From: Chiloscyllium plagiosum
Taxonomy: Eukaryota
Assembly (NCBI RefSeq): GCF_004010195.1
Contig: NC_057753.1
Location: forward strand, 11,444,241 to 11,487,801
Reading direction: 5' to 3'
Length of the DNA stretch: 43,561 nt
Below are positions 9,173-36,340 of this stretch, one piece after another (the stretch's first letter is position 1; each line of letters begins with the position of its first letter). Both the position numbers and the translations under genes were made by a program. The notes below the pieces were generated by a model. That model searched no databases and was not told the DNA's origin. It saw only the letters and a program-made list of their open reading frames with translations.

Positions 9173-9404
9173 ACGTCAATGACAGTCACTCGATCCATTG
9201 GGACCGCAACAATTTTCAGCTATGAGTCTGTGAGAAGGAGCAAAGCTCTTTGGTTCCTGTTTCGGTCAATTTTCAGCATCAGGGAGACTGGATGAGACGC
9301 CGTACTGTTAGAGCGCACTGAGTGTGGAGCCTGAAACAGTTATACGGCCTGGGAAGAACGAGGAGGGGCTGCACACACGTTTGTGTGCAGCTGAAGCTTC
9401 AGCC

Positions 9405-10199: not shown

Positions 10200-10590
10200 C
10201 AGCTGACGGTTTTTGCAAACGTAGCTCTTAACTGAAACTGCAGGGTCTCAGGCAGGAAGCAGAATATAGGTCCAGCTAACTTGCTGTTTTTCTGCACATC
10301 AAAACCATAAGGCCTCCTGAGCTCAAACTGTGCATAGTCTGTGTGATGTAGGCTGTGTCATATGGTTATCCTGTGGTTTGTAAGTAACTCTCAATGTGTA
10401 CAATGTAAGTCCGTAGTGACCTGTACTGCTTTGGAGAAAGCACTGGATCATTCTTGAGGAGGTCTCTGTCTCTGTCTCTGTCTCTGTCTCTGTCTCTGTC
10501 TCTGTCTCTGTCTCCACCCCCCCCCCCATGATATCATGTTAATAAAATTTGTCAGTGCTCAAGGTCTGATTCCGGGGAATTTCTTCAACA
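10200..10590 (+). mobile_element. ERV LTR 3' part (start approximate)
   Basis: AATAAA 10541-10546, end TTCTTCAACA followed by a PBS; similar to LTR pieces at 33271-33402 and 34586-35291. Confidence 0.75.
10463..10527. repeat. (TCTCTG)n hexamer microsatellite plus poly-C tract
   Basis: Directly visible; explains the ETETET ORF. Confidence 0.95.
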
Positions 10591-10593
10591 ATT

Positions 10594-10611
10594 TGGAGTA
10601 GTCGGCAGGAT
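10594..10611 (+). promoter_or_regulatory. Retroviral primer-binding site, tRNA-Ser
   Basis: TGGAGTAGTCGGCAGGAT matches 17/18 the complement of the vertebrate tRNA-Ser(AGA) 3' end (TGGCGTAGTCGGCAGGAT); 3 nt after the LTR CA. Confidence 0.88.
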
Positions 10612-11167
10612 CCCTTCTTTACAGGGTCCTCAACAAACCTAAAATTATAAAAGATCCTGTCCTGAGTCAACAGGCTGATCCCAAGGTGGGGAAAGATGCT
10701 GAGACAAGAGGGAGGACTGTTTCTCCACCGATTATAAATCCGCATTTTAGAACGAAAGAAAAACACTATGTGGTCTGTGACTTCTAAAACAGGCCGTACC
10801 CGGAGACACTGAAAACTTATCCCGCTGAGAAGGACGGCCCCCGTCCATTTCTCCTCTTGGAGAAAACACAAGCGCGCAGGAACGCCACAGTAAACACGTT
10901 CGATGCAAAAAAAATAGGGGATTGAAGCTCCTCTGAAATAGAGGTTCAAGGCCCTTCAGGGAAATAGGACATTTTGGTAAATCCTTGGTGAACTGGGCAA
11001 CTTGATAAATCATACAAATTTGAAGGACATTCAGTTTGAATGATTGCACGATTGTGTGGTTGGGTGTGTTTGAGTGCAGTTGGGTGGGTGTGCGGTTCGG
11101 TGGGTGAGTGTGTGACAGCTCCCAAAAGAATGGGCAACGATATCTGTCATGAGGCGCACCCTCAGCA

Positions 11168-11422: not shown

Positions 11423-12681
11423 TTCGTTGGTGGTTACATGTGGTCTCGTGTAAATATTTGTTGTATTTTTGCTCCCTGGAGCTCGGGATCTGGGAAATGT
11501 TTTGAATTAAGTATACATTTTGGAAATCCATGGTGATTTTAAAGTGTTGTCTGTATCAGTGTGGATCATGCATGGTTAATGCAATGTCCCTTTTTTTTAA
11601 TTAAGAAAGATTTTTTATTCTTCACAAAATTATAAAACTTCAAAAATAGAACAATCTGATAGCCATAAACTATCGTTGCTATACTAACTATTAATCTACC
11701 ACACATAATAGAAAAGAAAAACCACCCAAACTGCAGTTTAATAAATAATTGAACAGAATAATTGAAATAATTAAATTAAATTATACTATCCAGTGCAGCC
11801 CCACCAAAGCTCCACATCCTCAGGAGCATCAGTTAGCATGCCCACATTTATTTGGGATTCTTCCTCTCAGGGTACCCAGCCCAGCAGGCCCAAGTCTCGT
11901 GGCTAAACAAAAACTTGAGTTAATATAGCCAACAAGTCTGCTTCTATATAGTTCAAAAAAAAAGGCCACCATGTCTTATTTTAAAAAAAGGTTCTGCTTT
12001 CTACTGCATCATACTTGTAAGGAAGTCGAGGGGCACGTGTCCCGTAACCAGTCAGCGCCACCCTGAGAGAGACGGAGGACTTTCTGAGATCCAGCTCGTC
12101 AGCCTGTTCTTCCCCGTGCAATACATAAGAATATTAAACCGCTTCTTCCCGTGCCGATCGCGATAGGCGGACTCCGTAAGCACAAAAGAAGAGAGCCCCA
12201 GAACCCCCATCGAGACACTTGCTATAGCGCCCCAGTATTTGCAAAGCGTACCGTGTGACCACCAAACAGTGGGGTGCGTGCGCCAATATCTATTTTGCAC
12301 TTGGGACACATTGGAGGTGCTCCTTTTTTAAATTTCGCGAGCTGTTCTGGGGCCAAAGTGAAGGACTTTCAGCTTGTGTTCTGTCACATTCTCCCAAATG
12401 TCTTCCCGTACCTCTGAAGAGAGCTCCACTCCCAGTTCGTGCGCCCAGACCCCCATGCAGCTGTTCAATAACTTTCGAGGTCCCACCTCCCAGTAGATGG
12501 TAGCAGGTACTCAGGGAGAGGGTACCTCTGGTCTGAAGCACTCTCCTTTCTGCATCAGGCCCTTGTCAGTCAACCCACAGTGCGGTCTTTTTCCGAATAA
12601 AGTCCCCAATCTGAAAATAACAAAAGAGCTCCCTGGTGGGCAATTCATATTTACAGCTCAACTGATCAAAGGGCATCGTGG

Positions 12682-15643: not shown

Positions 15644-16469
15644 TGTTATGATGGGTGTAGAGGTACTGTACCTTTAAGAGAGTTAAAAAGCTAGCAAGGA
15701 CTTGGAGAAGCACAGAGAGTCTGGAACAAGGCAACAATGTAACATTTGGTCGAAGTTAAAAATCACACAACACCAAGTTATAGTCCAACAGGTTTAATTG
15801 GAAGCACTAGCTTTCGGAGCGCTGCTCCTTCATCAGGTGGTTGTGTCCAAATCATTTGGTTGAAACAGCTAGAGTAGATGGGTTGCCATGAGACACAAAC
15901 AAATTCAAATTTGGCCAAACAGTTTAAATTATGCTCCAAGATACCAAACTCCAATCAAGTTTGAATTTGGTTTTAACATTATCAAAATACTAATGAAACG
16001 ATCCAATGTTTTGGGGTATAAAACCAAATGTTTTTTGAACAGTTGAGGGAGAACTGCCAAAGACCAATAGGCTGCTAGTTTAAGAGCTCTCATAAAGGTA
16101 CTGTCTGTGGAAGAAGCTTGTACAGCAGGACATAGAAACCGACCTGGAAAGAGAATCTATGGAGGAAATTCAGCAAAGCTGACTGGTTTTGAAATATAGT
16201 TAATTTATTTGTAAATCAGAATCTGGATTTTTAAAATCAGAATAGTATTGAAGAGGGGGAGGTAAAATATAGGTTTAACAGAAACCAATTGTAAATAATT
16301 GTTAGTCGTTATCCTCTGTTAGACTTAAAGAATAAAGTTATTAATTTTTACTTTAGTGACTTTGGGGATAGTTGGTCGTCTCTTGAATTTTAACAGATTA
16401 CAGCACAGGGTGAATCTTTTCTGTGTTGCTGGTTTAAATTAGCAGAGGGGTTTACCCCATGTCATAACA
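15644..16469 (+). mobile_element. Solo LTR (probably Gypsy-type) inserted in the L1 endonuclease domain
   Basis: Termini TGTTATGA...TCATAACA, 4-bp TSD TCAT/TCAG, AATAAA at 16331; L1 sequence resumes on both sides. Confidence 0.85.
15805..15839 (-). ncRNA. Minimal hammerhead ribozyme (PLE family B)
   Basis: CAC-CTGATGA-A-GGAGC-AGC-GCTCC-GAAA-GC-TA-GTG: intact core with stems I and II. Confidence 0.8.
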
Positions 16470-18131: not shown

Positions 18132-18720
18132 GGGTGGTGTGGCGGCTCAGTGGTTAGCACTGCTGCCTCACAGCACCAGGGACCCGGGTTCGATTCCAGC
18201 CTCGGGCAATTGTCTGTGTGGAGTTTGCACATTCTCACCCGATACGGGCTGGGTGCTGGCAGGTGGGACTAGATTGGGTTGGGATATCTGGTCAGCATGG
18301 ACGGGTTGGACCAAAGGGTCTGTTTCCATTCTATGACTCTATGTCTGTGTGGGTTTCCTTCCACGATCCAAAGCTGTCTGGTCAGGGTGTATTGGCCATA
18401 CTAAATTACCCATAGTGCCCAGAGATGTGCAGGTTAGGGTGGATTGGCCGTGCTAAATTGCCCATAGTGCCCAGGGTCATGCAGATTAGGGTGAATTGGC
18501 CATGCTAATTATCCCCTGGTGTTCAGGGATGTGAAGGGTAGGTGCATTAGTCAGGTGTAAATATAGGGTAGGGAAATGGGTCTGCGTGGGTTACTCTTCA
18601 GAGGGTTAGTGTGGACTTGTTGGGCTGAAGGGCCTGTTTCCACACTGTAGGGATTCAGGTCCTGATGAAGGGCTTACATCCGAAACATCGATCTCCTGCT
18701 CCTCAGAAACTGCCTGACCT
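18132..18720 (+). mobile_element. Composite V-SINE with CR1 tail insert and ~52-bp internal tandem units, followed by a family A HHR element at 18661
   Basis: SINE head, repeated GGCCATGCTAAATTGCCCATAGTG-like units; CTGATGAAGGGCTTACATCCGAAAC. Confidence 0.8.
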
Positions 18721-18724: not shown

Positions 18725-20012
18725 GTACTGGTGTAAATCAAAACCTGCCAGGAAATGTTGATTTTTAAAAATTTGGTCTGAAAGATTAGTGAAATTTATC
18801 TCTCAGAATTGGAATTTATCATGCTTGGAATTTTATTTTCTGGCCAGAGTGAACTGTCAAATACTGTTTTAGTCAAATATACTCTTTAATTCCAGCTGAC
18901 ACAATTTTCTTGTACTTTGTGAAAATTGGCATTTTGGAAATGCAAACTTGTTTGAACTAGATTTTGGATTAGTGATGCTGGAAGAGCACAGCAGTTCAAG
19001 CAGCATCCGAGGAGCAGTAAGATCGGCGTTTCGGGCAAAAGCCCTTCATCAGGAATAAAGGCCCAAAACGTTGATTTTACTGCTCCTCGGATGCTGCCTG
19101 AACTGCTGTGCTCTTCCAGCACCACTAATCCAGAATCCGGTTTCCAGCATCTGCAGTCATTGTTTGTACTGAACTAGGTTTTGGTCAAGTGTTCTAAAAT
19201 CTGTAAAATAAAACTGATGAAGATGTGGCGGTGACATTGAACGACATTCGGGTATTGAACGAGATGTGGGGACACCCATCCTTGTCAGTGCTAGTGTAAA
19301 TAGGCTGTAACCATCATGGAACACCCGTTCTGTACCCTCTGTATAGGTCAGGGAACTAAGACTGTGAACGAAATCTTGAGCAACCTGCAACTTGACAGTG
19401 CTAATTACAGGAGAAAGTGAGGGCTGCAGATGCTGGAGATCAGAGCTGAAAATGTGTTGCTGGAAAAGCGCAGCAGGTCAGTTCAAATAGACTAGTGCTA
19501 ATTACAGCTCCAGTAAATGAAACGGAAAGATCTGATTGGATCTTTGGGGTGGTCTCACTCCATCAGCCATGTTGACCCCTTGGGCTGGTGTGGACAGAGA
19601 CAGGGGATTGGCCAGTGCTGTAGAAAATTTCAGAAAGAGACCTTCAGTATTGGCCAACGTTATTTCACTACTTATCACGGGAAACAGCCAGTAAAACTGC
19701 TTCGAAATTACAATTCAGCTTGAGGTTTAGAGGAGCCTCAATTGTCTGAATTTCGGAGTATCCGAAGAAGATCTCAAGGTCCAGCTTGAGATACGTGTAT
19801 TTGATTTACCTGTACTGAAGAACATGTGAAAATGCTGGCAAGAACAAAGAAACACAAGCAGCTCAAGCGACTGGATATTTTTTCGGTAAGGGTTAATTTC
19901 ACAGCCCTGAAGTGTTTTACAGGGTATTCCCATCACTTTACTGAGCTGTTCATGAACAAAATGGCCGACAAAGTAAACGCATGCATGAGGCAGTGCTTCT
20001 GTCTTTGGAGTC
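18725..20012 (+). pseudogene. Candidate endogenous viral element: decayed Mononegavirales L (RdRp) N-terminal region
   Basis: Colinear YLSELEFIMLGIL (18797), WGHP (19267), TGDWPVL (WP 19609), SEEDL..FDLP (F 19800), DKA-like..SDW (W 19872), SKRMHEAVL (19972); needs frameshifts and stops. Confidence 0.55.
18961..19169. mobile_element. Inverted (head-to-head) pair of family A PLE elements
   Basis: ~75-bp arms 18960-19036 / 19062-19138; TGAACTAG duplicated at 18953 and 19170. Confidence 0.8.
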
Positions 20013-20845: not shown

Positions 20846-20999
20846 AGATTCATTAATATTAGAGATTTAAACAGATTCTCCGGTAGAGCACAGCGTTAGA
20901 TCAGTATTGCTTCCTTTGTTTAAGATAAAATCAATTATCCGAACGAAATAGTGCCCGCCCATCTCGTTCGGAAAATACAAGGTTCCTCTGTATACAGGA

Positions 21000-21172
21000 A
21001 GATAATTCTCAATGTATAATTTCAGTTACATCACACTGTAAAATTTTGCTATAAATTCTGTGCCTTAGAATTGTGTCCTCCACAACCACCTGATGAAGGA
21101 GCGTCACTCCGAAAGCTAGTGTGCTTCCAATTAAACCTGTTGGACTATAACCTGGTGTTGTGTGATTTTTAA
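21000..21172 (+). mobile_element. PLE family B pseudo-LTR with HHR (21087-21121)
   Basis: 15-bp TSD CCTCTGT(A/T)TACAGGA at 20985 and 21173; CACCTGATGAAGGAGCGTCACTCCGAAAGCTAGTG. Confidence 0.85.
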
Positions 21173-21509
21173 CCTCTGTTTACAGGATTTCAGCTGATAA
21201 TTTACATTAATTGGACGCAGTACGAGATGGCCTGCTTGCACCTGCATTGGACAGAGTGGAGGTCTTGCCAAAAATGTATATTAAAAGGTCTATTGTTTTA
21301 GGTTTGTGTCAATACTTTGAAGTTACTTTGTAACCCCTCCCCTGCTGATTTAACGACATTCCATAGATAAAGTATTTCATGAGTTATGCAGAAGCGTGCT
21401 TAGGGTTATCAGAGGACAAAACCTTAAATCAAGAAAAGGCAGCACGGTAAGTAAAGGAAAAACAGGGACTATTCAGGAAAGGACCTAAATTCTTCACTGA
21501 ACCCTTTTA

Positions 21510-22456
21510 TTTATTTATTTATTTTTTTGAGACACAGTGGAAGACACAAAGTGCACAAATCTTTATTCAATTTCCACCACCAGGAAGATAGGAAAACACC
21601 CGGGTGGCCAGTGACAAACACTGCCCTTCACATCAAAGGGCAAGCACACCTGTTTTTTTTCTTTTTTTTTCTTTTTTTNNNNNNNNNNNNNNNNNNNNNN
21701 NNNNNNNNNNNNNNNNNNNNNNNNNNNNNNNNNNNNNNNNNNNNNNNNNNNNNNNNNNNNNNNNNNNNNNNNNNNNNNNNNNNNNNNNNNNNNNNNNNNN
21801 NNNNNNNNNNNNNNNNNNNNNNNNNNNNNNNNNNNNNNNNNNNNNNNNNNNNNNNNNNNNNNNNNNNNNNNNNNNNNNNNNNNNNNGTCGTCGAACAGGA
21901 GCTGCGTGTCGTAGTTGAGGTTACGCACCTGGCGGAAAAAATAGGAGGAGGCTCGACGTAAAGGTATCGCCGCAAGGTCTGAAGGCGGAAGGTCGCGACC
22001 TGGGTGCGGACGCACACCAGCGACTGACCGCCCTCCTCAATAGGGAGACTCAGAACCTGCGCGGCGACCCAGTGCATCTTTTTGTCCCAGAAGAAATCGA
22101 CCAACGTTCTCTGGATGTCAGTGACAAAGACAGGAGGAGGGACCAAAGTGACCAGCCGGTACCACAGCATGGCGGCCACCAGCTGGTTTATGACCAGCGC
22201 TCGACTCCTGTAAGATAGCACTCGGAGCAGTCCTGTCCAGCGGCCTAGGCGAGCCGAGACTTTGGCCTCCAGCTCCTGCCAGTTGGCCGGCCAGGATTCC
22301 TCAGCCGGGCTGAGGTAGACCCCCAGGTAGAGGAGATGGGTGGTACTCCAGCTGAACCCCCGTAACTCCTCCGGCAGAGAGTCCACCCGCCACGGGCCGA
22401 CCAGTAGTCCGGAACATTTGGCCCAGTTGACCCTGGCGGAAGACGCCGCTGAGTAC
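21510..22456 (-). mobile_element. Tx1-clade LINE ORF2 fragment (spans gap)
   Basis: ARVNWAKCSG...YLGV...LSYRSRALVINQLVAAMLWY...LPIEEGG; T-rich tail; AACCCTTTT at both flanks. Confidence 0.85.
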
Positions 22457-22544
22457 AACCCTTTTTTTTTATTCTAGGAGTCTCAAATTAACAGACGTTT
22501 ATCTGAGTTTTACTAATTGCAGGCTGATAATTAATTGCAGACCG

Positions 22545-23146
22545 TTTAGATTCCCTGCAGTGTGGAAACAGGCCCTCCGGCCCAACAAGTCCACATCGAC
22601 CTTCCGAGGAGTAATCCACCCAGACCCATTCCCCTATCCTATATTTACCCCTGACTAATGCATTACGGGCAATTTAGCATGGCCAATTCACCTGACCTGC
22701 ACGTCTTTAGCTTGTGGGAGGAAACCCACGCAGACACGGGGCGGAATGGCTAATCCACCCGAACCTCGCAGCGTCAGAGATCCGGGTTCAATTCCCGCCT
22801 CAGGCGACTGACTGTGTGGAGTTTGCACGTTCTCCCCGTGTCTGTGTGGGTTTCCTCCGGGTGCTCCGGTTTCCTCCCACAGTCCAAAGATGTGCACGTC
22901 AGGTGAATTGGCCATGTTAAATTACCCGTAGTGTTAGGTAAGGGGTAAATGTAGGGGTACTGGTGGGTTGCGCTTCGGCGGGGTTGTGTGGACTTGTTGG
23001 GCCGTAGGGCCTGTTTCCACACTGTAAGTAATCTAATCTAATCTAATCTAAATGTGCTACTTCACACAGACAGTTGCCCGAGGCAGGAATCGAACCAGGT
23101 TCCTGGCGCTGTGAGACAGCAGTGCTGACCACTGAGCCAACATGCT
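22545..23146. mobile_element. Nested V-SINEs (plus copy ~22785-23051 inside a minus copy)
   Basis: SINE consensus in both orientations. Confidence 0.85.
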
Positions 23147-23424
23147 ACAAGAATTCATTCTCTTGTACAGAACAGGACTGACCACTGTTAATTTTCAATA
23201 ATGATTTGTTTCTTATGGGTAAAACTTCATCTCATCCCTCCAGGGTCAGGTCAGACTATGACACAGAATCTCGTTAGACAGTTAGTTACAAATTTCTCTC
23301 GATAATGACTTTTAGGGTAGTTAACGCTCAATGAAAATGGCTTCCAGGGCCACAAAATTACTTCCACAATATCTCCTTTTTTCTCGTTTGAGATCAAAAG
23401 AATAGGTCCGGAGACTCAAGAGAG

Positions 23425-23747
23425 GATTAGATTCCCGAGAGTGTGGAAACAGGCCCTTTGGCCCAACCAGTCCACACCGACCCTCCGAAGAGTAACCCAT
23501 CCAGACACCATTTCCCTCTGATGCACCTAAAACTATGGGCAATTTAGCACGGCCAATCCACCCTAACCTGCACATCCCTGGGCACTATGGGTAATTCAGA
23601 ATGGCTAATCCACCCTAACCTGCACATCCCTGGGCACTATGGGTAATTCAGAATGGTCAATCCACCATAACCTGCACATCCCTGGGCACTATGGGTAATT
23701 CAGAATGGCCAATCCACCCTAACCTGCACATCCCTGGGGAACTATGG
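23425..23747 (-). repeat. V-SINE 3' part with four 52-bp tandem units
   Basis: Units start at 23553, 23605, 23657 and 23709 (CCAATCCACCCTAACCTGCACATCCCTGGG...). Confidence 0.9.
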
Positions 23748-23749
23748 CC

Positions 23750-24240
23750 TAATTTTGTCTCTCAGCAACCCAGGTACTGCTAACTGCTGGACCAAATGTT
23801 ACGTTGTAAATTCTTCAGCACTCTGTGTGTTTGCTAAGTTCTTCAACTCTCTTCAGGGTACGGTATACATCTACACTTTCATAGTAATGGCAAAGAACTG
23901 CTCAGTCTCGTTTATACCTATCTTGGTATGAGTCTAAGGTTATTTGAATGGGGAGGAGTACGTGTAGTAAATGAGGAGAAGCACATGCCCCAGATAGCAA
24001 TGAGTAGTCCAGGAGAGTGGTAGCCAGGAGTAGGCATCATGGCCGCAAATAAAATAGGTGTCATCGATTTTCCTGCTTCTCGGATGCTCCCTGACCTGCT
24101 GTGCTTTTCCAGCACCACTCTAATCTTGACTCTGATCTTCAGCATCTGCAGTCCTCACTATTGCCCATGTCCTGTGGAAATTAAATCCTCTCTGTTCCCA
24201 CAAAGCTCCGTAACCATGGGCCACGCCAAAAGCACAATGA
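23750..24240 (-). pseudogene. env: ERV env remnant (SU C-terminus, cleavage/fusion region), interrupted by a PLE piece at ~24062-24165
   Basis: TYFICGHDAYSWLPLSWTTHCYLGHV...HTKIGINETEQFFAI resembles gamma-type Env YFxCGxxAYxxLPxxWxGxCYLG plus a decayed RxKR site. Confidence 0.82.
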
Positions 24241-24467
24241 GAGACAAAAAAATACCTGCAGATGCTGGAATCCAAAGTAGACAGGCAGGAGACTGGGAGA
24301 ACACAGCGAGCCAGGCAGCACCAGGAGGCGGAGAAGTCGACATTTCGGGTTAACCCTTCTCCAAACCCGAAATGTCAAAAACACAACGAGGGTCAGTAAA
24401 TATATTTGCAGATTTTCCTTTTGTCAAGATGCAAGCACGTTGATCCCTGCATTAGTTCCAAGGTAAT

Positions 24468-24778
24468 AGATTAGATTACTTACAGTGTGGAAATAGGCCC
24501 TTCGGCCCAACAAGTCCACACCGCCCCTCCGAAGAGCAACCCATTCCCCTACATTTACCCCTTACCTAACACTACGGGCAATTTAGCATGGCCAATTCAC
24601 CTGACCTAACCTGCACATCTTTGGACTGTGGGAGGAAACCAGAGCACCTGGAGGAAACCCACGCAGACATGGGAAGAATGTGCAAGCTCCACACAGACAG
24701 TTGCCTGAGGCAGGGATTGAACCCGGGTCTCTGGTGCTGTGAGGCAGCAGTGCTAACCACTGAGCCACCGTGCCACCC
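24468..24778 (-). mobile_element. V-SINE (HE1-like)
   Basis: Full reverse-complement consensus. Confidence 0.9.
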
Positions 24779-24809
24779 ACATGCAGCTGCATGTGCAAAC
24801 TCCATACAG

Positions 24810-24940
24810 ACAGGAGGATATTTGGCTCTCCAGTGACCATACCTCCCACAGTTAAAGCAAGGACCTGCCACTCATCCCTGGGGGATTTCACTGTCTTGTT
24901 CCCAGTCCCTACTGGAGCCTGCCTGTCCCATTTTACTCGG
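24810..24940 (-). pseudogene. gag: ERV gag nucleocapsid zinc knuckle remnant
   Basis: GPCFNCGRYGHWRAKYP = CX2CX4HX4(C>Y). Confidence 0.78.
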
Positions 24941-24952
24941 GAAATAGTGTTC

Positions 24953-25529
24953 ACTATTCAAAAGGGCCACAACACACTGCAGTACACCAGAACTGCAAAA
25001 AGAAGAAGAGGAACACCTATGCAAGGTATTCGCCAAAAACGGATACCCGCGCAACTTCATCAACAGATGCCTAAGAGAAAGACCACGGAACGAGGACATA
25101 CCACAACCAAAAGGACTAGCCACACTACCATACATCAGGAGCATCTCGGAACTGACTGCTAACTACTGCGACCCCTAGGACTCATAACGGCACACAAACC
25201 AACAGCCACGCTCAGACAACAACTCACCACAACGAAGGACCCGATACCCAACATGAGAAAAACTAATGTACAGCCAGGGAATTCCTAGAGGCATGGCATT
25301 CATCCACAAACTCCATCAACAAACACGTCGACCTGGACCCAATATACCAACCACTACAGCGGACAGCTGAAACTGACAACCGGAAGCGGCAGAGACAGAC
25401 CACTATAAACACCGGAGGAAACATCAAAGAAGCGCTTCGCAGGAGGCTCCCAAGCACTGATGATGTCGCCTAGCCAGGGGACGAAACGTTTGCAACAAAA
25501 ACTTCCAGCTCGGCGAACACAACCACAAC
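24953..25529 (+). mobile_element. Penelope-like element 3' fragment (RT thumb/linker, internally deleted GIY-YIG, pseudo-LTR with HHR 25454-25493)
   Basis: LFKRATTHCS...NGYP...LPYIRSISE...REFLEAWHS; GCA-CTGATGA-T-GTCGCCT-AGCC-AGGGGAC-GAAA-CG-TT-TGC. Confidence 0.9.
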
Positions 25530-26080
25530 AGTGTCGGTATGCCAGACATAGGCTCAGGATGCAGTGTATAACTTAAGTTATTTTTACAGCGCTGTTGCTT
25601 CAACTCCTTTTTCAACGGTTCGTTTCCTACACTTTCCAACATATCGCCCACTTCTATTGCCATTTGGATGTACAATACTCAACTTGTTTTAATGGATGGT
25701 TCAGGTGAACATTAGTCAATGTAGCCAAGCTTCAGTTTAATCAGGAGGCAATGCCACAGATCACTGACAATGTATAAAGGTAGAAAAACCAATCAAACTT
25801 GCCAATTATTTCTGATTATGTAATTCAGGACTAATACAAATAGTGTAAAATATTGACTAATGTAACCATATTTTCTCATTGAGAGATGGAAACTGTACAA
25901 ATGACTGAGACGTTTCACTGTTAATTAATAAGAACAAATGGATTTTAATGTCACAAAAATGATTCAAATCTGCTCAGGGTTGTACACATAAAATTATATC
26001 AGGACTGTCCTATTATGCGCATATTCCACTCAGCTATTACATTATAAGTTTTCTTCCTACTGAGTATGAGTTTTGTTAAG

Positions 26081-26375
26081 AGGCACGGTGGTTCAGTGGT
26101 TAGCACTGTTGCTTCACAGCGCCAGGGACCTGAGTTTGATCCCAGCCTCGGGCGACTGTCTGTGTGGAGTTTGCACATTCTCCCCTCGTGTCTGCGTGGG
26201 TTTCCTCCCATAGTCCAAAAGATGTGTAGGCTAGGTGAACTGGCCACACTAAATTGCCCATAGTGTTAGGTGCATCATTCAGAGTGAAATGGGTCTGAGT
26301 GGGTTATACTCTTCGGAGGGTCAGTGTGGACTTGTTGAGCCAAAGGGCCTGTTTCCACACTGTAGGGAATCTAAA
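26081..26375 (+). mobile_element. V-SINE (HE1-like)
   Basis: SINE consensus. Confidence 0.88.
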
Positions 26376-26382
26376 TAATCTA

Positions 26383-26900
26383 TGATTTGGAGATGCCGGT
26401 GTTGGACTGGGGTGTACAAAGTTAAAAATCACAGAACACCAGGTTATAGTCCAACAGGTTTAATTGGAAGCACACTAGCTTTCGGAGCGACGCTCCATTA
26501 AACCTGTTGGACTATAACCTGGTGTTGTGTGATTTTTAACTTTGCACAGCCATCTGATGAAGGAGCGACTCCAAATCCAAACCTGGTAGCATCCTTGTAA
26601 ATCTTTTCTGCATCCTTTCAAGTTTCACAAAATCCTTCCAACAAGAGGGAGACCGGAATTACTAGCTTTCGGAGCACCGCTCCATTAAACCTGTTGGACT
26701 ATAACCTGGTGTTGTGTGATTTTTAACTTTGCACAGCCAACTGATGAAGGAGTGTCGCTCCGAAAGCTAGTGTGCTTCCAATTAAACCTGTTGGACTATA
26801 ACCTGTTGTTCCTGAAGAAGGGCTTATGCCCGAAACGTCGATTCTCCTGCTCCTCGGATGCTGCCTGGCCTGCTGTGTTTTTCCAGCCCCACATTTTTCA
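26383..26900. mobile_element. Cluster of PLE pseudo-LTRs in mixed orientation with HHR cores at 26741 (family B) and 26812 (family A)
   Basis: Three direct and one inverted ATTAAACCTGTTGGACTATAACCTG; CTGATGAAGGAGTGTCGCTCCGAAAGCTA; CTGAAGAAGGGCTTATGCCCGAAACGTC. Confidence 0.85.
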
Positions 26901-27794
26901 ACTCATAGCCTGGTGTTTTTTAACTAAAATAAACTAGAAATTCATTTAATCAAATCCCAATGTTATAATATAAAACCTGCACAGTTTCCAACGCTGAAAT
27001 TCATTACAATTACCTGGTTCCAGTCTCTCAATTTAAATCCCAAATTTGATTCTTTAAGCAGTTTTGATCAGACATTGCTCATTCATATTGCGACAGGCTT
27101 AATTGCAAATGATTGCAACTGCATGGACAAAAGTCTTGCCTACTCACATTCATTTTGTTTAGTTTTGTTCATGTTAACAAAATGTGTCTAATGCACAAAT
27201 AATGATTAATCCAAGGACACAAATATTAACCATAGTGTTAAGTGCATGTAACTTTGTTACATGCGTTTTACAAAATAATGTTGAACTGAAACTTCAATTC
27301 TCAGTGAGGAAGGGAAATCTAAACAGAATAAAGCTATGGCCTCACAAATGAAATGCAGCAGTTTCTCAAAATTATCTGGAAACAAACAAGTCCAAAACAT
27401 TTTTTTAAAAATTTCTGCTCGTATCATTTTCTGAAAACAATATTTTTGGTTTGGGATATTTAAATCCATCTTTATGCTTTCAGTTTTACATTTTTAATTA
27501 AATTATCTAAAGTTCACTGTAATGCCTCCTCTTAATGAGTACATGTTAAAGTCTGAGGTGACCTTCCTCAACGTTAGGCTTAGATTATTTTTTCAAGAAA
27601 TGAGCAGACACCTGTTTTAACCTGAGGTCAGGATGCTGAAAAGTTAATGTCACTGTACTATACCATAAGATCGAATTTATTAATTACAAAACAAACGTGC
27701 TTCAGAAAACTTTGATAGGAAAGCAGTGTGCAGATTGATTCTGATTTGGTTACAGTGCTACTGCTTTTACCTCCTTTAGTCAATCCTTTGACTA

Positions 27795-28770
27795 GGACAA
27801 AGAACAAAGAAAATTTAACAGCCCAGGAACAGACCCTTCGGCCCTCCAAGCCTGAGCCGATCCAAATGTACTGTCTAAACCTGTGGAAAAAGCTTGTCTC
27901 TATCTACCCTGTCTAGACCCTTCATGATTTTGTAAACCTCAATCAGGTCCCCCCTTAATCTTCTTTTTTCTAATGAACATAAACCCAACCCACTCAACCT
28001 TTCTTCATAGCTAGCACCTTCCACACCAGACAATATCCTCGTATTCCTGAAGAAGGGCTTATGCCCGAAACATCGATTCTCCTGTTCCCTGGATGCTGCC
28101 TGACCTGCTGCGCTTTTCCAGCAACACATTTTCAGCTCTGATCTCCAGCATCTGCAGCCCTCACTTTCTCCTCAATATCCTCGTAAACCTTCTCTACAAC
28201 CTCTCCAAAGCATCCACATCCTTTTGGGAATGTGGTGATCAGAAATGTACACAGTATTCCAAATGTGGCCGACCCAATGTCTTGTACAATTTTAACATGA
28301 CTTGCCAGCTCTTATACTCAATACCCCATCCAATGAAGGCAAGCATACTATATGCCTTCTTGACCACTCTATCCATCTGTGCAGCAGCCTTCAGGGTACA
28401 ATGGACCTGCCCTCCCAGATCTCTCCGCCCATCAACTTTTCCCAAGGCTCGTCCGTTCATTGTGTAATTCACTCTAGAATTAGTCTTGCCTAAATGCATC
28501 ACCTCACATTTGTCTGGACTGAAATCCATCTGCCACTTTTCCACCCAACTCTCCAGTCTATTTATATCCTCCTGTATTTGGACAGTCCCTTATGTTTTCT
28601 GCTATTCCACCAATCTTTGTGTCATCTGCAAACTTGCTGATCATACCAACAGTGCCCTCTTCCAGATCATTTATGTATATCACAAACACCAGTGGCCCCA
28701 ACACTGACCCCTGTGGAACAACACTGGTCACCTTTCCCCATTTCGAGAAACTCACTTCAACTACTACTCT
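27795..28770 (-). mobile_element. CR1 RT to 3' end with a family A HHR element (28044-28172) inserted
   Basis: VPQGSVLGP, FADDTK; insertion flanked by 13-bp TSD CAATATCCTCGTA (28031, 28173). Confidence 0.9.
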
Positions 28771-29196
28771 CACTAGTCCAACACCTGGGGGTGAAAGGAG
28801 TGAAATTGATCTTTAGCAGTAGTATGATATTATGATGGTGTTAAGAGCAGGTTTATACTGGTGTAAAATGGTGCAAGAATCTTAAGGAAAAGACATTTTT
28901 GAAAGATTGTAATGTTATTTTCCTCCATGTTAAACTGATTTGAATTAAATAAGATTGGCTTCCATGAAAACATTAAAAAATGTGACGGGTTAGAACTTGA
29001 CAGTAGGGCAGTCATGGTTTGTAAGAAGAACAGGTGGGTTAATACTTTATTAATGTTACTTTTTCTTTTACAGAATTTGCATTTTGTAGTCACTGATGGT
29101 TCCTTAAAAAAAATCCCCATAGATTGCCAAAATGCAAATTAAATTCAAAGCATTCCCAGATCTCGAGCTCCAGGGAATAAAAACACAAACATTCAG

Positions 29197-29510
29197 TCAC
29201 GGCACTGTGGCTCAGTGATTAGCACTGCAGCCTCACAGCGCCAGGGACTCTGGTTCGGTTCCAGCCGCGGGCGAGTGTCTGTGCAGAGTTTGCACATTCT
29301 CCCTGTATCTGCATGGGTTTCCTCCCATGGTCCAAAGCTATGCAGGTTAGGTGAATTGGCTGTGCTAAATTGCCATAGTGTTCAGGGATGTGCAAGTTAG
29401 GTGCATTAGTCAGGGGTAAATATAGGGTAGGGGGAATGGATCTGAGTGGGTTACTCTTTGGTCGGTGTGGACTTGTTGGGTCGAAGGATCTGTTTCCACA
29501 CTGTAGGAAT
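29197..29510 (+). mobile_element. V-SINE, diverged
   Basis: SINE consensus. Confidence 0.85.
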
Positions 29511-29539
29511 TATATGGAACACCAATAAGCAAATATGTA

Positions 29540-30110
29540 TTCAAACCTGACCACAAAGAGTTAACCCTTTGACAAGGTTTAGTGAATCTCTCTCTCTTGC
29601 AAGTATGAACATTTTCCAACTTTCTTCCTATCTCAGTTTTTAGCTTTTGTTTATTCCTTGCTTGTAAGGGTAATGAGACCTTCACATTCCAGCACAGCCA
29701 AAGTTAGGGAGTTTAGCCTTATAAATCCTGGCTGTGACACATAGCTGCTTAAACAAGTGGGAATCATAAATACCTCTTAGTCATTCCAATTGCAGTCTTA
29801 ACAGTATTTTCAAGCCTCTGCATTAGTCCACAGCCCAAAGGGAGATACAATGCAGTCTTTAATGGTTGCCCAATGTGTCCCCTATGCCAAATTCATTAAA
29901 GTCTGGACGTCCTGATGCAAGCAATTATACTTACTGCAGATTTGTACTGGCCAACTCAAACATGATGTTGGGCGTTTCAGCAGATCTGCGGAAGGACACT
30001 GCAGACCTCAGAGTGGGTCCAGGGCTTGTCAAGTGGGGTTTCACCGATCATAATCCGGGGGCAAGTAAGTTCTTTACTACTAATGTTCTGTGAACTGTGA
30101 GATTGGGTGC
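29540..30110 (-). pseudogene. Probable ERV gag capsid remnant
   Basis: KPWTHSEVCSVLP resembles the PWTxxE...LP start of epsilon-like CA; lies between MA and NC remnants in the same orientation. Confidence 0.45.
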
Positions 30111-30189
30111 CTTGTACAGAACCAGACAAGTTAGAAGTGGACAAGACAGCAGACACTGAAACAGAGTGTATGGTGCCAGAAAAAGCATA

Positions 30190-30420
30190 AAGTTACAAAT
30201 TCCACAACACCAGGTTATAGTCCTTCATCAGGTGGTTGATGAAGGACCGTCGCTCCGAAAGCTACTGCTACCAATCAAACCTGTTGGACTATAACCCGGT
30301 GTTGTGGGATTTGTAACTTTGTACACCCCAGTCCAACACCGGCATCTCCAAATCAGAAAAAGCACAGCAGGTCAGGCAGCATCCGAGGAGCAGGAGAATT
30401 GATGTTCCAAGCAAAACGCT
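30190..30420. mobile_element. Inverted family B PLE pseudo-LTR pair nested in a family A-like element
   Basis: CACAACACCAGGTTATAGTCC vs GGACTATAACCCGGTGTTGTG; TGATGAAGGACCGTCGCTCCGAAAGCTA. Confidence 0.75.
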
Positions 30421-30441
30421 GATTTCAAGCATCACACCTCT

Positions 30442-31455
30442 GGGTGGCACGGTGGCACTATGGTTAGATTAGATTACTTACAGTGTGGAAACAGGCCCTT
30501 CGGCCCAACAAGTCCACACCGCCCGGCAAAGCGCAACCCACCCATACCCTTACATTTACCCCTTTACCTAACACTACGGGCAATTTAGCATGGCCAATTC
30601 ACCTGACCCTGCACATCTTTGGACTGTGGGAGGAAACCGGAGCACCCGGAGGAAACCCACGCAGACACGGGGAGAATGTGCAAACTCCACACAGTCAGTC
30701 GCCTGAGGCGGGAATTGAACCCGGGTCTCTGGCGCTGTGAGGCAGCAGTGCTAACCACTGTGCCACCGTGCCACTGCTGCCTCAATTCCCGCCTCAGGTA
30801 ACTGTCTGTATGGAGTTTGCACATTCTCCCCGTGTCTGCGTGGATTTCCTCTGGGTGCTCTGGTTTCCTCCCACAATCCAAAGGTGTGCGGATCAGGTGA
30901 ATTGGCCATGCTAAATTGCCCATAGTGTTAGGTGCATTAGTCAGAGGGAAATGGGTCTGGGTGGGTTACTCTTCGGAGGGTCGGTATGGACTGGTTGGGC
31001 CAAAGGGCTTGTTTCCACACTGTAGGGAATCTCATCTAATCTACTCCTCGTCAGACTTCTGTACAGTTTCAAACCTCTCAGCTGGCTGCTATCCGAAACA
31101 ATTTATGTGGCTCGTTGGTCTAGGGGTATGATCCTTGTTTTGGGGTGGCATGGTGGCACGGTGGTTAGCACCGCTGCCTCACAGCGCCAGGGACCCGGGT
31201 TCAATTCCAGCCTCGGGCAACTGTCTGTGTGGAGTTTGCACATTCTCCCCCTGTCTGCGCGGGTTTCCTCTGCGTGCTCTGGTTTCCTCCCAATGTCCAA
31301 AAAATGTGCAGTTTAGGTGAATTGGCCATGCTAAATTGCCTGTAGTGTTAGGTGTAAGGGGGGAATGGGTCTGAGTGGGTTGCTCTTCTGAGGATCGGTG
31401 TGGACTTGCTGGGCTGAAGGGCCTGTTTTCACACTGTAAGTAATCTAGTCTAATC
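30442..31455. mobile_element. Three V-SINEs (plus 30442-31042 with nested minus ~30465-30772; plus 31144-31455)
   Basis: SINE consensus in both orientations. Confidence 0.88.
31109..31147 (+). pseudogene. 5' half of tRNA-Pro(TGG), joined to a SINE head
   Basis: GGCTCGTTGGTCTAGGGGTATGATCCTTGTTTTGGG vs tRNA-Pro GGCTCGTTGGTCTAGGGGTATGATTCTCGCTTTGGG. Confidence 0.85.
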
Positions 31456-31639
31456 AGTGCTGCTTCAATTCTTTCACCAAACATTTAAGAGGCATCTGGA
31501 TGAGTATATGAATAGGAAGGGTTTGGAGGGATATGGGCCGGGTGCTGGCATGTGGGACTAGATTGGGTAGGGATATCTGATCGGCGTGGATGGGTTGGAC
31601 GGAAGGGTCTGTTTCCGTGCTGTACATCTCTATCTCACC

Positions 31640-32420
31640 TTCCACCCCAGACACTAGGACCCCATCGAGTACACGCACCAGTATCTTGCAGCTGAACTGT
31701 ACCCGCGTTTCTCTCTGCATTTTGGCCCTGCATGTTCAGGAAGCGACAAAAGCAGCAATCTCGTCAATTTGAGGGTGGGAGTCCGAAGCAGGGATGGTAT
31801 GTTTGGGGGACTGAGCGCAGCCGCGATTTTTATTTTTAGGGGGCTGATCTTTAAAATGTATCGATGCAAATCCTATCCCACAATGGGTCGGCATATTCAC
31901 CCCCTCGGTGTTAGTCCTCCAGTCATCAATCTTTTCCAACTTAAAGGACCCTCCATAAGGCCAGTTGCCATGGGACAACCCGTATAGATTAGATTAGATT
32001 CCCTACAGTGTGGAAACAGGCCCTTCAGCCCAACCAGTCCACACCGACCCTCCGAAGAGTAACCCACCCAGACCCATTCCCCTACGCCTAACACTATGGG
32101 CAATTTAGCGTGGCCAATTCACCTGACCTGCACATCTTTGGACTGTGGGAGGAAACCGGAGCACCCGGAGGATACCACGCAGACACGGGGTGGTATGTGC
32201 AAACTCAACATAGACAGTCGCCCGAGGCTGGAATCAACCTGGGACCCTGGTGCTGTGAGGCAGCAGTGCTAACCACTGAGCCACTGTGCCACCCCTGGGA
32301 AAAGGCTGGAGGGAAAAGGAATGATATTTCTCTACCATCACCTGTCTCTTTCCAAACAATATTGGCTGGTGATTCTGACGGAACCAGGGAGTCTCCTACC
32401 TTAATTGTGCCATTAGCGAG
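31640..32420 (-). pseudogene. gag: ERV gag matrix remnant split by a V-SINE (31986-32294)
   Basis: VPSESPANIVWK...[SINE]...GNWPYGGSFKLEKIDDW resembles the MA motif WPxxGSFxL. Confidence 0.65.
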
Positions 32421-32575
32421 TTTTGAGAAGATTTGTAGCTCAGATTGAGGTTCTGGATGTAGGTTTGCTCGCTGAGCTGGAAGGTTCATTTTCCGACGTT
32501 TCGTCACCATCCTCGGTAACATCTTCAGTGAGCCTCCGGACGAAGCACTGGTGGCATGGCCCGCTTTTCTATTTT
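32421..32575 (-). mobile_element. Penelope pseudo-LTR (family C) with HHR 32495-32528
   Basis: CTGAAGA-T-GTTACC-GAGGAT-GGTGAC-GAAA-CG-TC on the minus strand. Confidence 0.82.
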
Positions 32576-33270
32576 TTGTCCTATCCAAGAACTTTTGGGA
32601 AATTACAAACATTGCATCCACGCTCTCTGTAACTACATCTTTCAGGATCCTAGGGTGCAAGTAACCAGGGCCAAGGAACCTGTCTTCCCTTGAGCCTCAG
32701 GAGTTTTTTCCTAATACAGCTTCTTATGATGGTACTTAATTCGACCACTTTTATTCTTTCGTATTAATGGGATGTTCAAACTATTTTCCACCAGCTAGTG
32801 CTTCCAATTAAACCTGTTGGACTATAACCTGGTGTTGTGTGATTTTTAATTTTGTACACCCCAGTCCAACACCAGCATCTCCAAATCATTCCACCATAAA
32901 GACTGATGCAAAATGTCTGTTCAACTCCTCCACCATTTCCATGCTCCCCATAACTATCTCCCAAAATAATCTTCTTGTTGTTGTTGCATTTCATTCACAT
33001 GGTTTTGCATCCTCGTCGAGTGGACAAACAGATGGAGACTGTCCTTCTCAGCAGGACATGATTTACTTGTCCCCCAGAGACAGCCCTTCCTTAGAGTTCA
33101 GCGACCCCCCCATCGGTCTGCAGGTGAATGAACAAAGAAAAAACAAAAAAAACCCTGAAACAGAGCCGGACGCTGGCGCCCCGGTCAATTTCTCAAGGCC
33201 TACTTTAAATTAAATGTACACCCGCAGCGATCTTCCCAAATCTTGCCTCAGCATTATTTCCCAAGCTGGG

Positions 33271-33415
33271 ATCAGATACAAGACATCAACCCTCGCTGCT
33301 CATTGCATTTCGGAACAGTCTATTGACTGTTTCCCATGATATATCACGAGATGTAATAAAGTTGGGCAATACTGAAGGTATATTTCCAAAATCTACTTCA
33401 ACAGTTGGCGGTCAA
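33271..33415 (+). mobile_element. Inverted ERV LTR R-U5 fragment plus decayed PBS, within the proviral leader
   Basis: Close reverse complement of 34575-34717; AATAAA 33355, ends CTTCAACA then GTTGGCGGTC. Confidence 0.8.
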
Positions 33416-33460
33416 CCATACAGTTTGAATACCGCTCCTTCCCCTTCTCCCTTCTTGTCA

Positions 33461-33898
33461 TGATTTGCAGGAGCTGGTGTTGGACTGTGGGAGTGTGTAT
33501 AGGAGTGCCTGTGTGTGTGAGAGAGAGAGTGTAAAGGGCTCTAGGTCTGTGAGAGGTTGCATTGTGTGTGTGCATAGGAGTGCCTGTTAATTCATTTTTT
33601 TTAGAGTTCATTTTTGTTAAAGTTCACTTTAGAATGTAAATTTTAAAAAGATATTTTGCGATTTATAGATGAAAGAAGAGAAACTAAAATGGTCATTCTA
33701 ACAGATGAGAGACTTAATAGACAATCAAGATATTTTTCACTGTATAATTTCAGTTACATCTCACTGTAAACTTTTGCTATAAATTCTGTGTCTTATAATC
33801 GTGTCCTCCACAATCACCTGATGAAGGAGCGTCGCTCCGAAAGCTAGTGCTTCCAATTAAACCTGTTGGACTATAACCTGGTGTTGTGTGATTTTTAA
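33461..33898 (+). mobile_element. PLE family B element with intact HHR (33815-33849)
   Basis: 14-bp TSD CTCCCTTCTTGTCA (33447, 33899); CAC-CTGATGA-A-GGAGC-GTC-GCTCC-GAAA-GC-TA-GTG. Confidence 0.88.
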
Positions 33899-33977
33899 CT
33901 CCCTTCTTGTCAGCCTTCTGACTCGGGTCAGGATCATGATATGAAACCGGAGGTCGAAACCAATTCTTATAATTTCA

Positions 33978-34526
33978 CCGAGCTGGGAATTTGTGTTGCA
34001 GACGTTTCGTCCCCTGTCTAGGTGACATCCTCAGTGCTTGGGAGCCTCCTGTGAAGCGCTTCTGTGATCTTTCCTCCGGCATTTTGGTTTGAATCTGCCG
34101 CTTCCGGTTGTCAGTTCCAGCTGTCCACGCTACTAAGGATAGCTGGTCGTGTTGTTTCGTGGCTAGTTGGTGTTCATGGATGCGGAGCTTTAGCTTTTAG
34201 TGTTTTGTGCAGTCCTTGCATGGGATTTTGTACACTATGTTGGTTTTGCTCATGCTGGGTATCGGGTCCTTTGTCCTGGTGAGTTGTTGTCTGAGAGTGG
34301 CTGTTGATTTGTGTGCTGTTATGAGCCCTAGTGGTCGCAGTAGTCTGGCTGTCAGATCGGAAATGCTCTTGATGTACAAGATCACAGAAGCGCTTCACAG
34401 GAGGCTCCCAAGCACTGAGGATGTCACCTAGACAGGGGACGAAACGTCTGCAACACAAATTCCCAGCTCGGCGAACAGAACCACAACAACGAGCACCCGA
34501 GCTACAAATCTTCTCCCAAACTTTGA
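33978..34526. mobile_element. Penelope element with inverted pseudo-LTRs, two HHRs and a GIY-YIG-proximal fragment
   Basis: 13-bp TSD TCTTATAATTTCA (33965, 34527); ~90-bp inverted repeat; NIVYKIPCKDC; GCA-CTGAGGA-T-GTCACCT-AGAC-AGGGGAC-GAAA-CG-TC-TGC. Confidence 0.92.
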
Positions 34527-34585
34527 TCTTATAATTTCAGGCTCGGTCTCATTGTAAGTAGAGAACCTGCTGACTGACTGCCAAT

Positions 34586-35291
34586 TGTTGAAGAAAATTT
34601 CGGAAATATACCTTCAGTATTGCCCAACTTTGTTACATCTCATGATATATCATGAAAAACAGTCAATAGACTGTTCCGAAATGCAATGAGCAACAAGGGT
34701 TTATATCTTGTACCTGACAGCTCTTACAATACAACAAAACAGCCACTAGATGGCTGACTTGCACTTTCTTTGGATGAAATGCCAAAAAATGTTTATCAAA
34801 AGGTCTATGGTTTTGGGTTTGTGGAAATAATTTGTACTTACATTGCTGATTTAACGAGTTTGCACATTCTCTCCCTGTGTCTGTATGGGTTTCCTCCGGG
34901 TGCTCCGGTTTCCTCCCACAGTCCGAAGAGGTGCAGGTTAGGGTGAATTGACCATGCTAAATTACCCATGGTGTTCAGGGATGTGTAGGTTAGGGTGAAT
35001 TGACCATGCTAAATTACCCATGGTGTTCAGGGATGTGTAGGTTAGGTGCATTGGTCTGGGGTAAATGTTTGAGTAATGGGTTTGATGGGTTTGGGTGGGT
35101 TACTCTTCGAAGGGTCGGCGTGGACTCTGGGAATTCTAGGATCTCTTTATTTACAAGGTCGGGCCAGACAGTGACACATCCTTAAATTGTCACGCTGTTA
35201 GTTATAAAATTTCTCTTTAGTGACGATTATTTTAACTTGGCTAGGTTTAAAATCTAAAAATGGCCTCCAGGGCCAGAAAATTACTTTGACA
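34586..35291 (-). mobile_element. ERV 5' LTR (SINE fragment inside at ~34857-35135) followed by a degenerate Ser-type PBS (34583-34564)
   Basis: TGTCAAAGTAATTTTCTGGCCCTGG...TTCTTCAACA, then AT-TGGCAGTCAGTCAGCAGGTT; leader similar to 10612-10860. Confidence 0.8.
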
Positions 35292-35699
35292 AGTCTGAAA
35301 CCTTGTTCATATTTTTAAAAATAAAACTGCAGACATCTTCCTGAAACTTGTATTGAAATATGCGCGGTTGGGCCACAGCTCAGGACAGGCTCAAAGGGCT
35401 GAATGGCCTTTTCCTAGTCCTGTGAAATTGGTTCCGACAATGTGGAAATAGAGTCACAGAGTTGTAGGGAACGGTAACAAACCCTTGTTGAACAGACATC
35501 CCAAATTAATCTAGTGACCCATTCACCAGTATCTACCCTGGGGGGGGGGGGGGAAATAAACATACAGAAGTTGAGCAGGCAGACAAAATGCAAAAGGAAT
35601 AAAACGTCGAGCCACAGGAGGGAAAAAAAATGTGGCTCCAGCCTTTAATTTGCTCCTTTTGGCATTTGGACATTTAAAATCTGTCAGTAACACCAGCAT

Positions 35700-36340
35700 C
35701 TCCACAGGGCGGACTGCGCATACTCTCCGGTGTCAGCAAGCAGTGCCCACGACCATCTCTTGATGGACCAATGGGGAGCCCGAGAGGACCGGAAGGGGTC
35801 TGTTATTGTCTGAATGCGGAAGTTGGACCATGAGTTCCTGAAGCTGCTTCATCCCAGACTGCAACTTCCTTCCCCTGTGTGTACAGCACTCTCTTTTCTC
35901 ACCCCCTTTTCCATTTTGTTTTTCATTCTGGGGTTGAATTGTTGACTTGCAGCAACTGGAGGGAAAGGGAGTGAAACCAGGGAGGGGACAGACTCTGGAA
36001 AAGTTAAATTAGATTACATTACAGTGTGGAAACAGGCCCTTCGGCCCAACAAGTCCACACCGACCCGCCGAAGGGCAACCCACCCATACCCCTACATTTA
36101 CCCCTTACCTAACACTATGGGCAATTTAGCATGGCCGATCCACCCTGACCTGCACATCTTTGGACTGTGGGAGGAAACCGGAGCACCCAGAGGAAACCCA
36201 CACAGACATGGGGAGAACGTGCAAACTCCACACAGTCAGTCGCCTGAGGCGGGAATTGAACCCGGGTCTCAGGCGCTGTGAGGCAGCAGTGCTAACCACT
36301 GTGCCACCGTGCCGCCCACAGTTGGTCCAGGTCTGTGTCT
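35700..36340 (+). promoter_or_regulatory. Second promoter/first-exon module paralogous to 6520-6831, with a V-SINE inserted at 36008-36318
   Basis: GGGCGG, TGCGCA, CCAAT, CCGGAAG, GCGGAAGT; GCAACTGGAG..GAGTGAAACCAGGGAGGGGACAGACTCT matches 6781-6815. Confidence 0.6.

Follow-up and report, generated by a model that had tools for sequence, protein, structure and literature searches.

The locus at 20856..35291 (minus strand) of the window, i.e. the whole 43,561-nucleotide stretch of Chiloscyllium plagiosum DNA analysed here, is a real but ordinary endogenous retrovirus (ERV) relic, very old and dead. Along the minus strand, it comprises an LTR, a decayed PBS, gag-like scraps, a zinc knuckle, RNase H scraps, an env scrap, a PPT and a second LTR. 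The order and identity of the LTR blocks, PPT, knuckle, RNase H and env scraps were directly observed, as were three large gaps in comparison with natural ERVs, each of them occupied by repeats. Because only 5,279 of its 14,430 bases lie outside nested repeats, the analysis supports an old, decayed class I-like ERV that was enlarged by later insertions, in agreement with a previous sequence-only reading of this DNA. There is no viral activity today, as all reading frames are broken. The explanation that we favour, with slightly better than even confidence, is a relic in proviral order in which most of pol and env disappeared at this very site, by deletions at nested repeats of younger age, and in which the two ends stem from two related proviruses that recombined. 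No tRNA gene or Rfam family was found in the window, and the possibility of a tandem provirus lying upstream, beyond the 5' LTR, was rejected, as 35293-36002 displayed no env or pol signal.

Long terminal repeats

The 5' LTR (34586..35291, minus strand) starts with TG at 35291 and ends with CA at 34586, and encompasses a clipped SINE (about 35126-34856) that replaces the TATA/R segment. The 3' LTR (20862..23368, minus strand) is present in pieces (23368-23150, 22545-22472, 21511-21176 and a weak U5 at 20998-20862), interrupted by SINEs, a Penelope-like piece and, at a TATA-like word, a LINE (22471-21512) that contains an N gap. The U3 and R blocks of the 5' LTR were shown to be collinear with 23368-23255 and 21354-21176, with none of 500 shuffles reaching either score; homologous direct LTRs flank the genes with respect to these two blocks, while the U5 end of the 3' LTR is uncertain. 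The LTR pair proposed earlier was thus recovered for the 5' LTR and the homologous U3/R blocks, but not for a 3' end at 20856, which lacks a CA end. The U5-like piece at 20984-20862 represented a marginal match to U5 (6/500 shuffles), and a better match was obtained at 19731-19616 (0/500 shuffles). This further U5 copy (19616..19731, minus strand), which differs from the 5' LTR by 22% and has no PBS behind it, is either an alternative 3' LTR terminus or an independent fragment. An inverted U5 copy (33272..33414, plus strand) differs from the 5' LTR by 9%.

As cautioned in the sequence-only reading, the two homologous LTRs are noticeably diverged: their blocks are 22-23% apart (p 0.22-0.23), with large indels between them, and their substitutions comprise 19 transitions versus 39 transversions. 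This ratio differs from that of younger repeat pairs (48:27; Fisher p 4.5e-4) and of the inverted U5 copy (9:2; p 0.005), and its transversion share was reached in 0-25 of 400 neutral simulation runs; compared with the remaining old pairs of LTR paralogues in the window (19:20), no difference was seen (p 0.14). A TSD outside the LTRs, named earlier as a check on the element, was not found when the 4-6-base 5' flank was searched for near both candidate 3' ends, although a 4-6-bp TSD is often unreadable at such an age and the 3' end is itself uncertain. Because of the lack of a TSD, the 22-23% divergence and the odd substitution spectrum, these findings suggest that two related proviruses contributed the two LTRs, i.e. 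that the LTRs are non-sister and the locus is chimeric.

A single very old integration, in which sister LTRs would have decayed to 22-23% divergence and deletions would have occurred in place, is considered quite unlikely. It would account for the collinear LTR blocks around one ordered gag-pol-env set, and the other, paralogous U5 copies in the window are equally distant (22%), as expected from one ancient burst. It is further consistent with the finding that a segment of the CA-like stretch occurs nearly unchanged in runs labelled with three organisms (13, 6 and 1 of the 20 matches listed; two of the 20 covered small shares and were not used). RNA runs did not feature among the matches listed, which carries no information about expression. 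Conversely, it is at odds with the transversion excess of the LTR pair, with the missing TSD and with a K of about 0.27, which corresponds to 614 My at the rate given in the available part of PMC4422223, or to 135 My at 1e-9 per year.

PBS, leader and PPT

The LTR family has a second member in the window (10527..10896, plus strand), which retains a U5 end, a PBS, a leader and a gag start. The PBS of this second copy matches a tRNA 3' end at 17 of 18 positions, representing the best such match in the window; we take its word to match vertebrate tRNA-Ser, and the fetched viral tRNA was assigned to Arg by ARAGORN. The decayed PBS of the present locus (34565..34583, minus strand) is recognised by its position and by homology to 10594-10611 of the second copy. 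The PBS reported earlier is a candidate on these grounds; on its own it does not rise above the window background (score 21 versus 22-24 elsewhere). The leader (33108..34564, minus strand) is broken by two insertions, presumably Penelope-like, with 13- and 14-bp duplications, and by the inverted U5 copy. The earlier PPT call (23372..23385, minus strand) was confirmed, with 14/14 purines directly abutting the 3' LTR, against a background of 53 all-purine 14-mers among 43,547 minus-strand positions in the window.

gag remnants and the AT-rich block

The likely gag start (32985..33107, minus strand), with ATG-Gly at 33107, has its homologue in the second copy at 10772-10896, also at the protein level (0/300 shuffles). 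An MA-like scrap (31640..31990, minus strand) was assigned by means of WPYGGSF, which we assume to be an MA motif and which is the sole basis of this assignment; the scrap had no matches among 1.84 billion representatives, no usable Atlas match, chance-level PDB matches and no match in Pfam or in reference-ORF and profile comparisons. The CA-like scrap with PWTHSEV (29520..30188, minus strand) contains many stops and yielded a weak post hoc signal at the PW motif (2/300 shuffles; 45/300 for the MHR), with no match in Pfam or in reference-ORF and profile comparisons. The letters of both motifs are therefore present where the sequence-only reading had placed them, but the MA and CA assignments are statistically weak, and the 5' half is carried by LTR, PBS and leader homology. 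The gag end (24812..24966, minus strand) encompasses a single zinc knuckle (24859-24818), which bears out the CCHC knuckle read at ~24840: it passes Pfam zf-CCHC (21.3 bits versus a cut-off of 20.8) and scored z 7.1 against a Gag profile, with the fourth ligand (last Cys) reading Tyr. A Gag profile derived from 8 amphibian-type and metagenome proteins was rejected, as its top score was a reversed decoy.

Within gag, AT-rich DNA (25531..29199, no strand assigned; three pieces totalling 1,878 bp, GC 32-35%) alternates with SINEs, part of a CR1-type LINE and further repeats, and the distance from the PW motif to the knuckle is 5,163 nt, compared with 780 nt in the class I-like ERV locus L004. This insert of ~1.9 kb lies outside what a model of deletion in place explains. 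It has neither a poly(A) tail nor a coding match; the only RVT_1 match (27840-28788, E 7e-5, below the cut-off) corresponds to the LINE piece, and an RRM_10 match (E 0.034 in 25525-26078) was not taken as evidence of captured cargo.

The presence of non-coding DNA where Gag has none would fit two truncated proviruses lying side by side, with a 5' half (LTR-leader-MA-CA) and a 3' half (knuckle-RNase H-env-LTR) separated by host DNA. The 22-23% difference and large indels of the LTR pair, the lack of a TSD and the occurrence in the window of three or more additional pieces from this LTR family point in the same direction. Such an arrangement is nevertheless unlikely, since both halves share the same orientation, follow gag order and have no homologous content in common, a combination that independent insertions would produce only by luck, and since a stretch of 90 bp from the AT-rich block (29200-29110) recurs behind gag of the second copy (z 15.8).

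Remnants of pol and env

The claim that no recognisable pol is present was not upheld, as a pol remnant (24170..24466, minus strand) consisting of two RNase H scraps (24466-24387 and 24237-24170) was found between the knuckle and env, the scraps being separated by a nested repeat of ~150 bp that has a short duplication. The first piece (24461-24387) beat 1000/1000 shuffles with three of the four reference Pol ORFs, the fourth of which begins downstream of this region; it is collinear with the second piece, and the reference residues aligned to it fall within Pfam RNase_H. This piece is independent of the pattern used for fetching the references, while the pattern match itself and the alignments of the second piece are circular and were excluded from the evidence. 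The fetch pattern retrieved no viral contigs, and one of the five metagenome loci (L002) was dropped as a likely chance match, having no ORF of 150 aa. Searched alone, the scraps displayed no RNase H in Pfam (five readings) or the PDB, and matched none of five protein-collection candidates. Protease, retroviral RT and integrase were not matched by any of 14 reference ORFs across the whole window. The reference-query comparison flagged 6 of 99 tests (12 shuffles each); near-misses of an integrase query on 28765-29200 (z 3.5) and of an RT query on the CA scrap (z 3.0) were out of gene order and attributed to chance.

The env remnant (23897..24062, minus strand) spans the SU end to about the SU/TM boundary. 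In line with the Env motif noted earlier at ~24050, positions 24059-23979 match a natural retroviral Env that carries Pfam TLV_coat (E 5e-5, 52% identity over 27 aa, z 9.6). The best PDB match was syncytin-2 (E 0.34), the TM core is absent, none of 43 candidates was matched in the protein search, and Atlas yielded nothing for the scrap. The deleted parts include the TM immunosuppressive and CX6CC region. The remnant is followed by the clipped end of a different LTR family (23781..23896, minus strand; other copy at 15644-16469) and then by a tandem SINE piece to 23425.

Gaps at nested repeats

The missing sequence amounts to about 2.2 kb (protease-RT), 2.6 kb (integrase and most of SU) and most of TM. 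The knuckle and RNase H are 420 nt apart, compared with 2,286 nt in L004, and RNase H and the env landmark 124 nt, compared with 2,651 nt in L001. All three gaps abut repeats, and no clean virus-virus junction was observed. The repeat between RNase H and env ends short of its fuller copies exactly at the env start, and the other-family LTR between env and the PPT matches over its first ~120 bases only. The chance of three such coincidences was roughly 0.001-0.01 in a junction test that was post hoc, with hand-set boundaries and 10-40 bases lacking an assignment at some junctions. As a younger repeat, visibly clipped in two cases, fills every gap, the losses likely occurred at the locus itself and not in a pol-less family that was replicating.

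A non-autonomous, largely pol-deleted family replicating in this form, possibly with the AT-rich block as captured host cargo, appears improbable. Retention of the required cis elements (LTRs, PBS, leader and PPT) and recurrence of piece 29200-29110 behind the second copy would agree with it. Yet all three gaps carry younger repeats in place of clean junctions, an RNase H scrap persists, and the AT-rich block has no poly(A) tail or coding match. Moreover, only one of 15 segments matched between the second copy and this locus, with no MA/CA, knuckle, RNase H or env sequence in common; the MA-like frame of the second copy had no match in Pfam, Atlas or PDB. The pol-less, non-autonomous element suggested by the sequence-only reading is thus not supported. 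Also improbable is an ancient shark ERV derivative that combined the loss of most of pol and env with ~1.9 kb of AT-rich host DNA in gag, non-autonomous spread and exchange between sister LTR subfamilies.

Under the favoured explanation of in-place losses and recombined ends, a replication-competent class I retrovirus (epsilon-like by host range) with gag-pol-env would have entered the germ line, and SINEs, LINEs and other LTR elements would subsequently have inserted into the provirus. Insertion-associated deletion or repeat-repeat recombination may then have taken out protease-RT, integrase, most of SU and most of TM, and crossing-over between neighbouring proviruses that belonged to sister subfamilies could have produced mismatched LTRs and no TSD.

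Comparison with known systems

No description of this ERV family was found in the literature listings searched. The significance of the locus is modest: it adds one more very old class I-like ERV relic, and a nearby family member, to the thin cartilaginous-fish record, and opens no new mechanism. It indicates that SINE and LINE landings can pare a provirus until it resembles a pol-less non-autonomous element, and that LTR-divergence dating is unsafe where the pair may be non-sister. MaLR, ETn and VL30 are non-autonomous LTR derivatives that spread with deletions which are clean and fixed, and their paired LTRs are young. The present locus resembles them in having kept cis elements and lost pol function, and differs in that nested repeats occupy its gaps and some of pol remains.

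According to the available part of PMC6001957, the gamma-type clade Jin infects amniotes only, and epsilon-like is therefore the expected class I type in fish. Compared with the class I clade of Mu/epsilon-like ERVs, as presented in the available parts of PMC6001957 and PMC4977317, the locus has no RT for placement in a tree. The available part of PMC4422223 describes CmiERV lineages II/III of the elephant shark as epsilon-like, with few near-complete insertions and many short fragments, defined by Pol and a downstream Env, and with LTR pairs 2.4-3.3% apart. The present locus, putatively epsilon-like, is likewise an ERV of a cartilaginous fish, a likeness by description and not by sequence comparison (PMC4422223, in part), whereas RT is gone and the LTRs are 22-23% apart here. 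The locus matches the natural class I-like ERV loci L001, L004 and L005 in having one Gag knuckle, a pair of RNase H motifs and the SU end of a gamma-type Env.

Remnants of gag, pol and env in the provirus

The minus-strand element at ~35291-20862 is, by the features tested, a class I-like proviral relic. Its zf-CCHC knuckle (24859-24818) was the sole ERV-side reading above the Pfam cut-off among the 45 readings scanned. As a reference set, a pattern scan gave five metagenome loci, four of which were retroviral, and the 14 ORFs of these loci served as queries for the whole window; Pfam confirmed RT, RNase H, integrase and TLV_coat in five of the seven reference ORFs scanned. The RNase H references matched two adjacent pieces of the element (piece 1, 24466-24387; piece 2, 24237-24170); a ~150-bp repeat, accompanied by a short duplication, lies between them. 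The match to piece 2 is circular, because this piece seeded the fetching pattern; piece 1, which is independent of the pattern, beat 1000/1000 shuffles with three of the four Pol ORFs, the fourth being without the matching region. Pol is therefore not absent, contrary to the sequence-only reading, which had found none recognisable. Protease, retroviral RT and integrase gave no signal when the 14 reference ORFs were compared with the whole window.

The previously suggested Env motif was borne out, as the Env of one retroviral reference locus (L001) matches 24059-23979 (E 5e-5), in an alignment extending to about the SU/TM boundary. The PPT was likewise observed, with 14/14 purines immediately ahead of the 3' LTR. 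The proposed MA and CA motifs (scraps at 31990-31640 and 30188-29520) are present as written but, with the available Gag references being distant, received no support from databases, except that the score at the PW motif of the CA-like scrap was reached by 2/300 shuffles in a post hoc test.

Repeats at the broken junctions

Within-window repeats cover ~47% of this repeat-dense vertebrate DNA. A SINE-like family, presumably of the shark HE1 type, is represented by at least 18 copies, three separate ones of which (23532-23747, 34931-35053 and 18380-18508) contain tandem amplifications of the same 52-base internal unit; HE1, CR1, Penelope and Tx1 are labels that we assume for the repeat families of the window.

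Using L001 and a second retroviral locus, L004, as rulers, and net of repeats, ~2.2 kb was shown to be missing from the knuckle to RNase H and ~2.6 kb from RNase H to the env scrap (24062-23897), as was most of TM ahead of the PPT. A repeat occupies each of these gaps: a SINE fragment and a SINE immediately adjoin the end of the knuckle, a short repeat ends where env begins (fuller copies continue further) and, before the PPT, ~120 bases from the start of another LTR family precede a SINE piece beginning mid-element. Four random insertions on 520 viral bases would strike all three junctions with a probability of 0.001-0.01, a rough, post hoc estimate. Nested repeat pairs are 4-11% apart, versus 22% for the LTRs. 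We infer that at this locus insertions came first and deletions later, an order that speaks against a pol-less family replicating in this form; the clean junctions of such a non-autonomous family, also put forward earlier, were not found.

The clipped piece at 23896-23781 belongs to the same LTR family as an apparent solo LTR (15644-16469, minus strand), which has inverted termini and a flanking duplication (3/4) and lies inside an L1-like LINE.

Divergence of the LTRs

The 5' LTR extends as claimed, from TG at 35291 to CA at 34586. Its U3 block aligns with 23368-23255 (111 columns, fraction of differing sites 0.234) and its R block with 21354-21176 (145 columns, 0.221), each score being reached by 0/500 shuffles. 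Between these blocks, the 3' LTR is interrupted by SINEs and by a LINE (22471-21512, minus strand; presumably Tx1-like), whose insertion, at a TATA-like word, is marked by a 9-base duplication; the LINE contains a 208-base N gap, and its open frame gave no Pfam match. The 3' end placed at 20856 lacks a CA. A U5-like piece at 20984-20862 is collinear but marginal (6/500 shuffles), 19731-19616 being a better U5 match (0.221, 0/500 shuffles), and no second occurrence of the 4-6 bases next to the 5' LTR was found at either candidate 3' end.

Proviral LTRs are identical at integration, according to PMC4422223 and PMC4643047; therefore, the two LTRs of this diverged pair either are of great age or are not sisters. 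Across U3 and R, the pair differs by 19 transitions versus 39 transversions, distinct from younger repeat pairs (48:27, p 4.5e-4) and from an inverted U5 copy (9:2, p 0.005), and its transversion share was reached in 0 to 25 of 400 neutral simulation runs. As counter-evidence, other old LTR paralogues in the window, also 22% apart, exhibit 19:20 (p 0.14 versus the pair). Non-sister LTRs are moderately preferred over very old sisters.

The inverted U5 copy (33272-33414, plus strand), located within the leader and 9% from the 5' LTR, has a different sequence where a PBS would be, and is possibly a templated insertion. Ahead of the 5' LTR, a non-repeat stretch (35293-36002) harbours a strong splice-acceptor-like tract near 35540 (minus strand) as well as 47 bases that match 6774-6820; the relic may be located within a host-gene intron.

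Second family member and AT-rich DNA

A second member of the LTR family (10527-11420, plus strand) begins ~450 bases behind a C2H2 zinc-finger open frame (9312-10070, plus strand; also delimited as 9399-10070), which has seven Pfam finger matches and no further domain among the best five Pfam matches listed. It comprises a U5 end, PBS, leader and gag start (10527-10896), followed by an 89-residue open stretch with what we take to be an MA-like motif and no database match. Its PBS matches a tRNA 3' end at 17/18 bases, more closely than does any other site in the window; that of the main element has decayed to window background. ARAGORN types the fetched viral tRNA as Arg, in disagreement with our assumption of Ser.

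The interval from the CA-like scrap to the knuckle contains 1,878 non-repeat bases (32-35% GC) with no accepted coding match. A 90-base piece (29110-29200) recurs at 11448-11540 (84% identical, z 15.8), the only one of 15 main-element segments to match the second copy. This recurrence lies downstream of the second member in the same relative orientation, and the block follows gag-like sequence in both elements. The AT-rich DNA may be cargo or an insertion not recognised as such, or it may be host spacer that separates two half-proviruses.

Comparison with known ERVs

No published description of this ERV family was found in the literature searched. Epsilon-like elements rank among the principal ERVs of fish, according to PMC4977317 and PMC6001957. 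The elephant shark, according to PMC4422223, carries epsilon-like class I ERVs plus many short fragments. The present relic is class I-like, the RT that would allow finer placement being gone.
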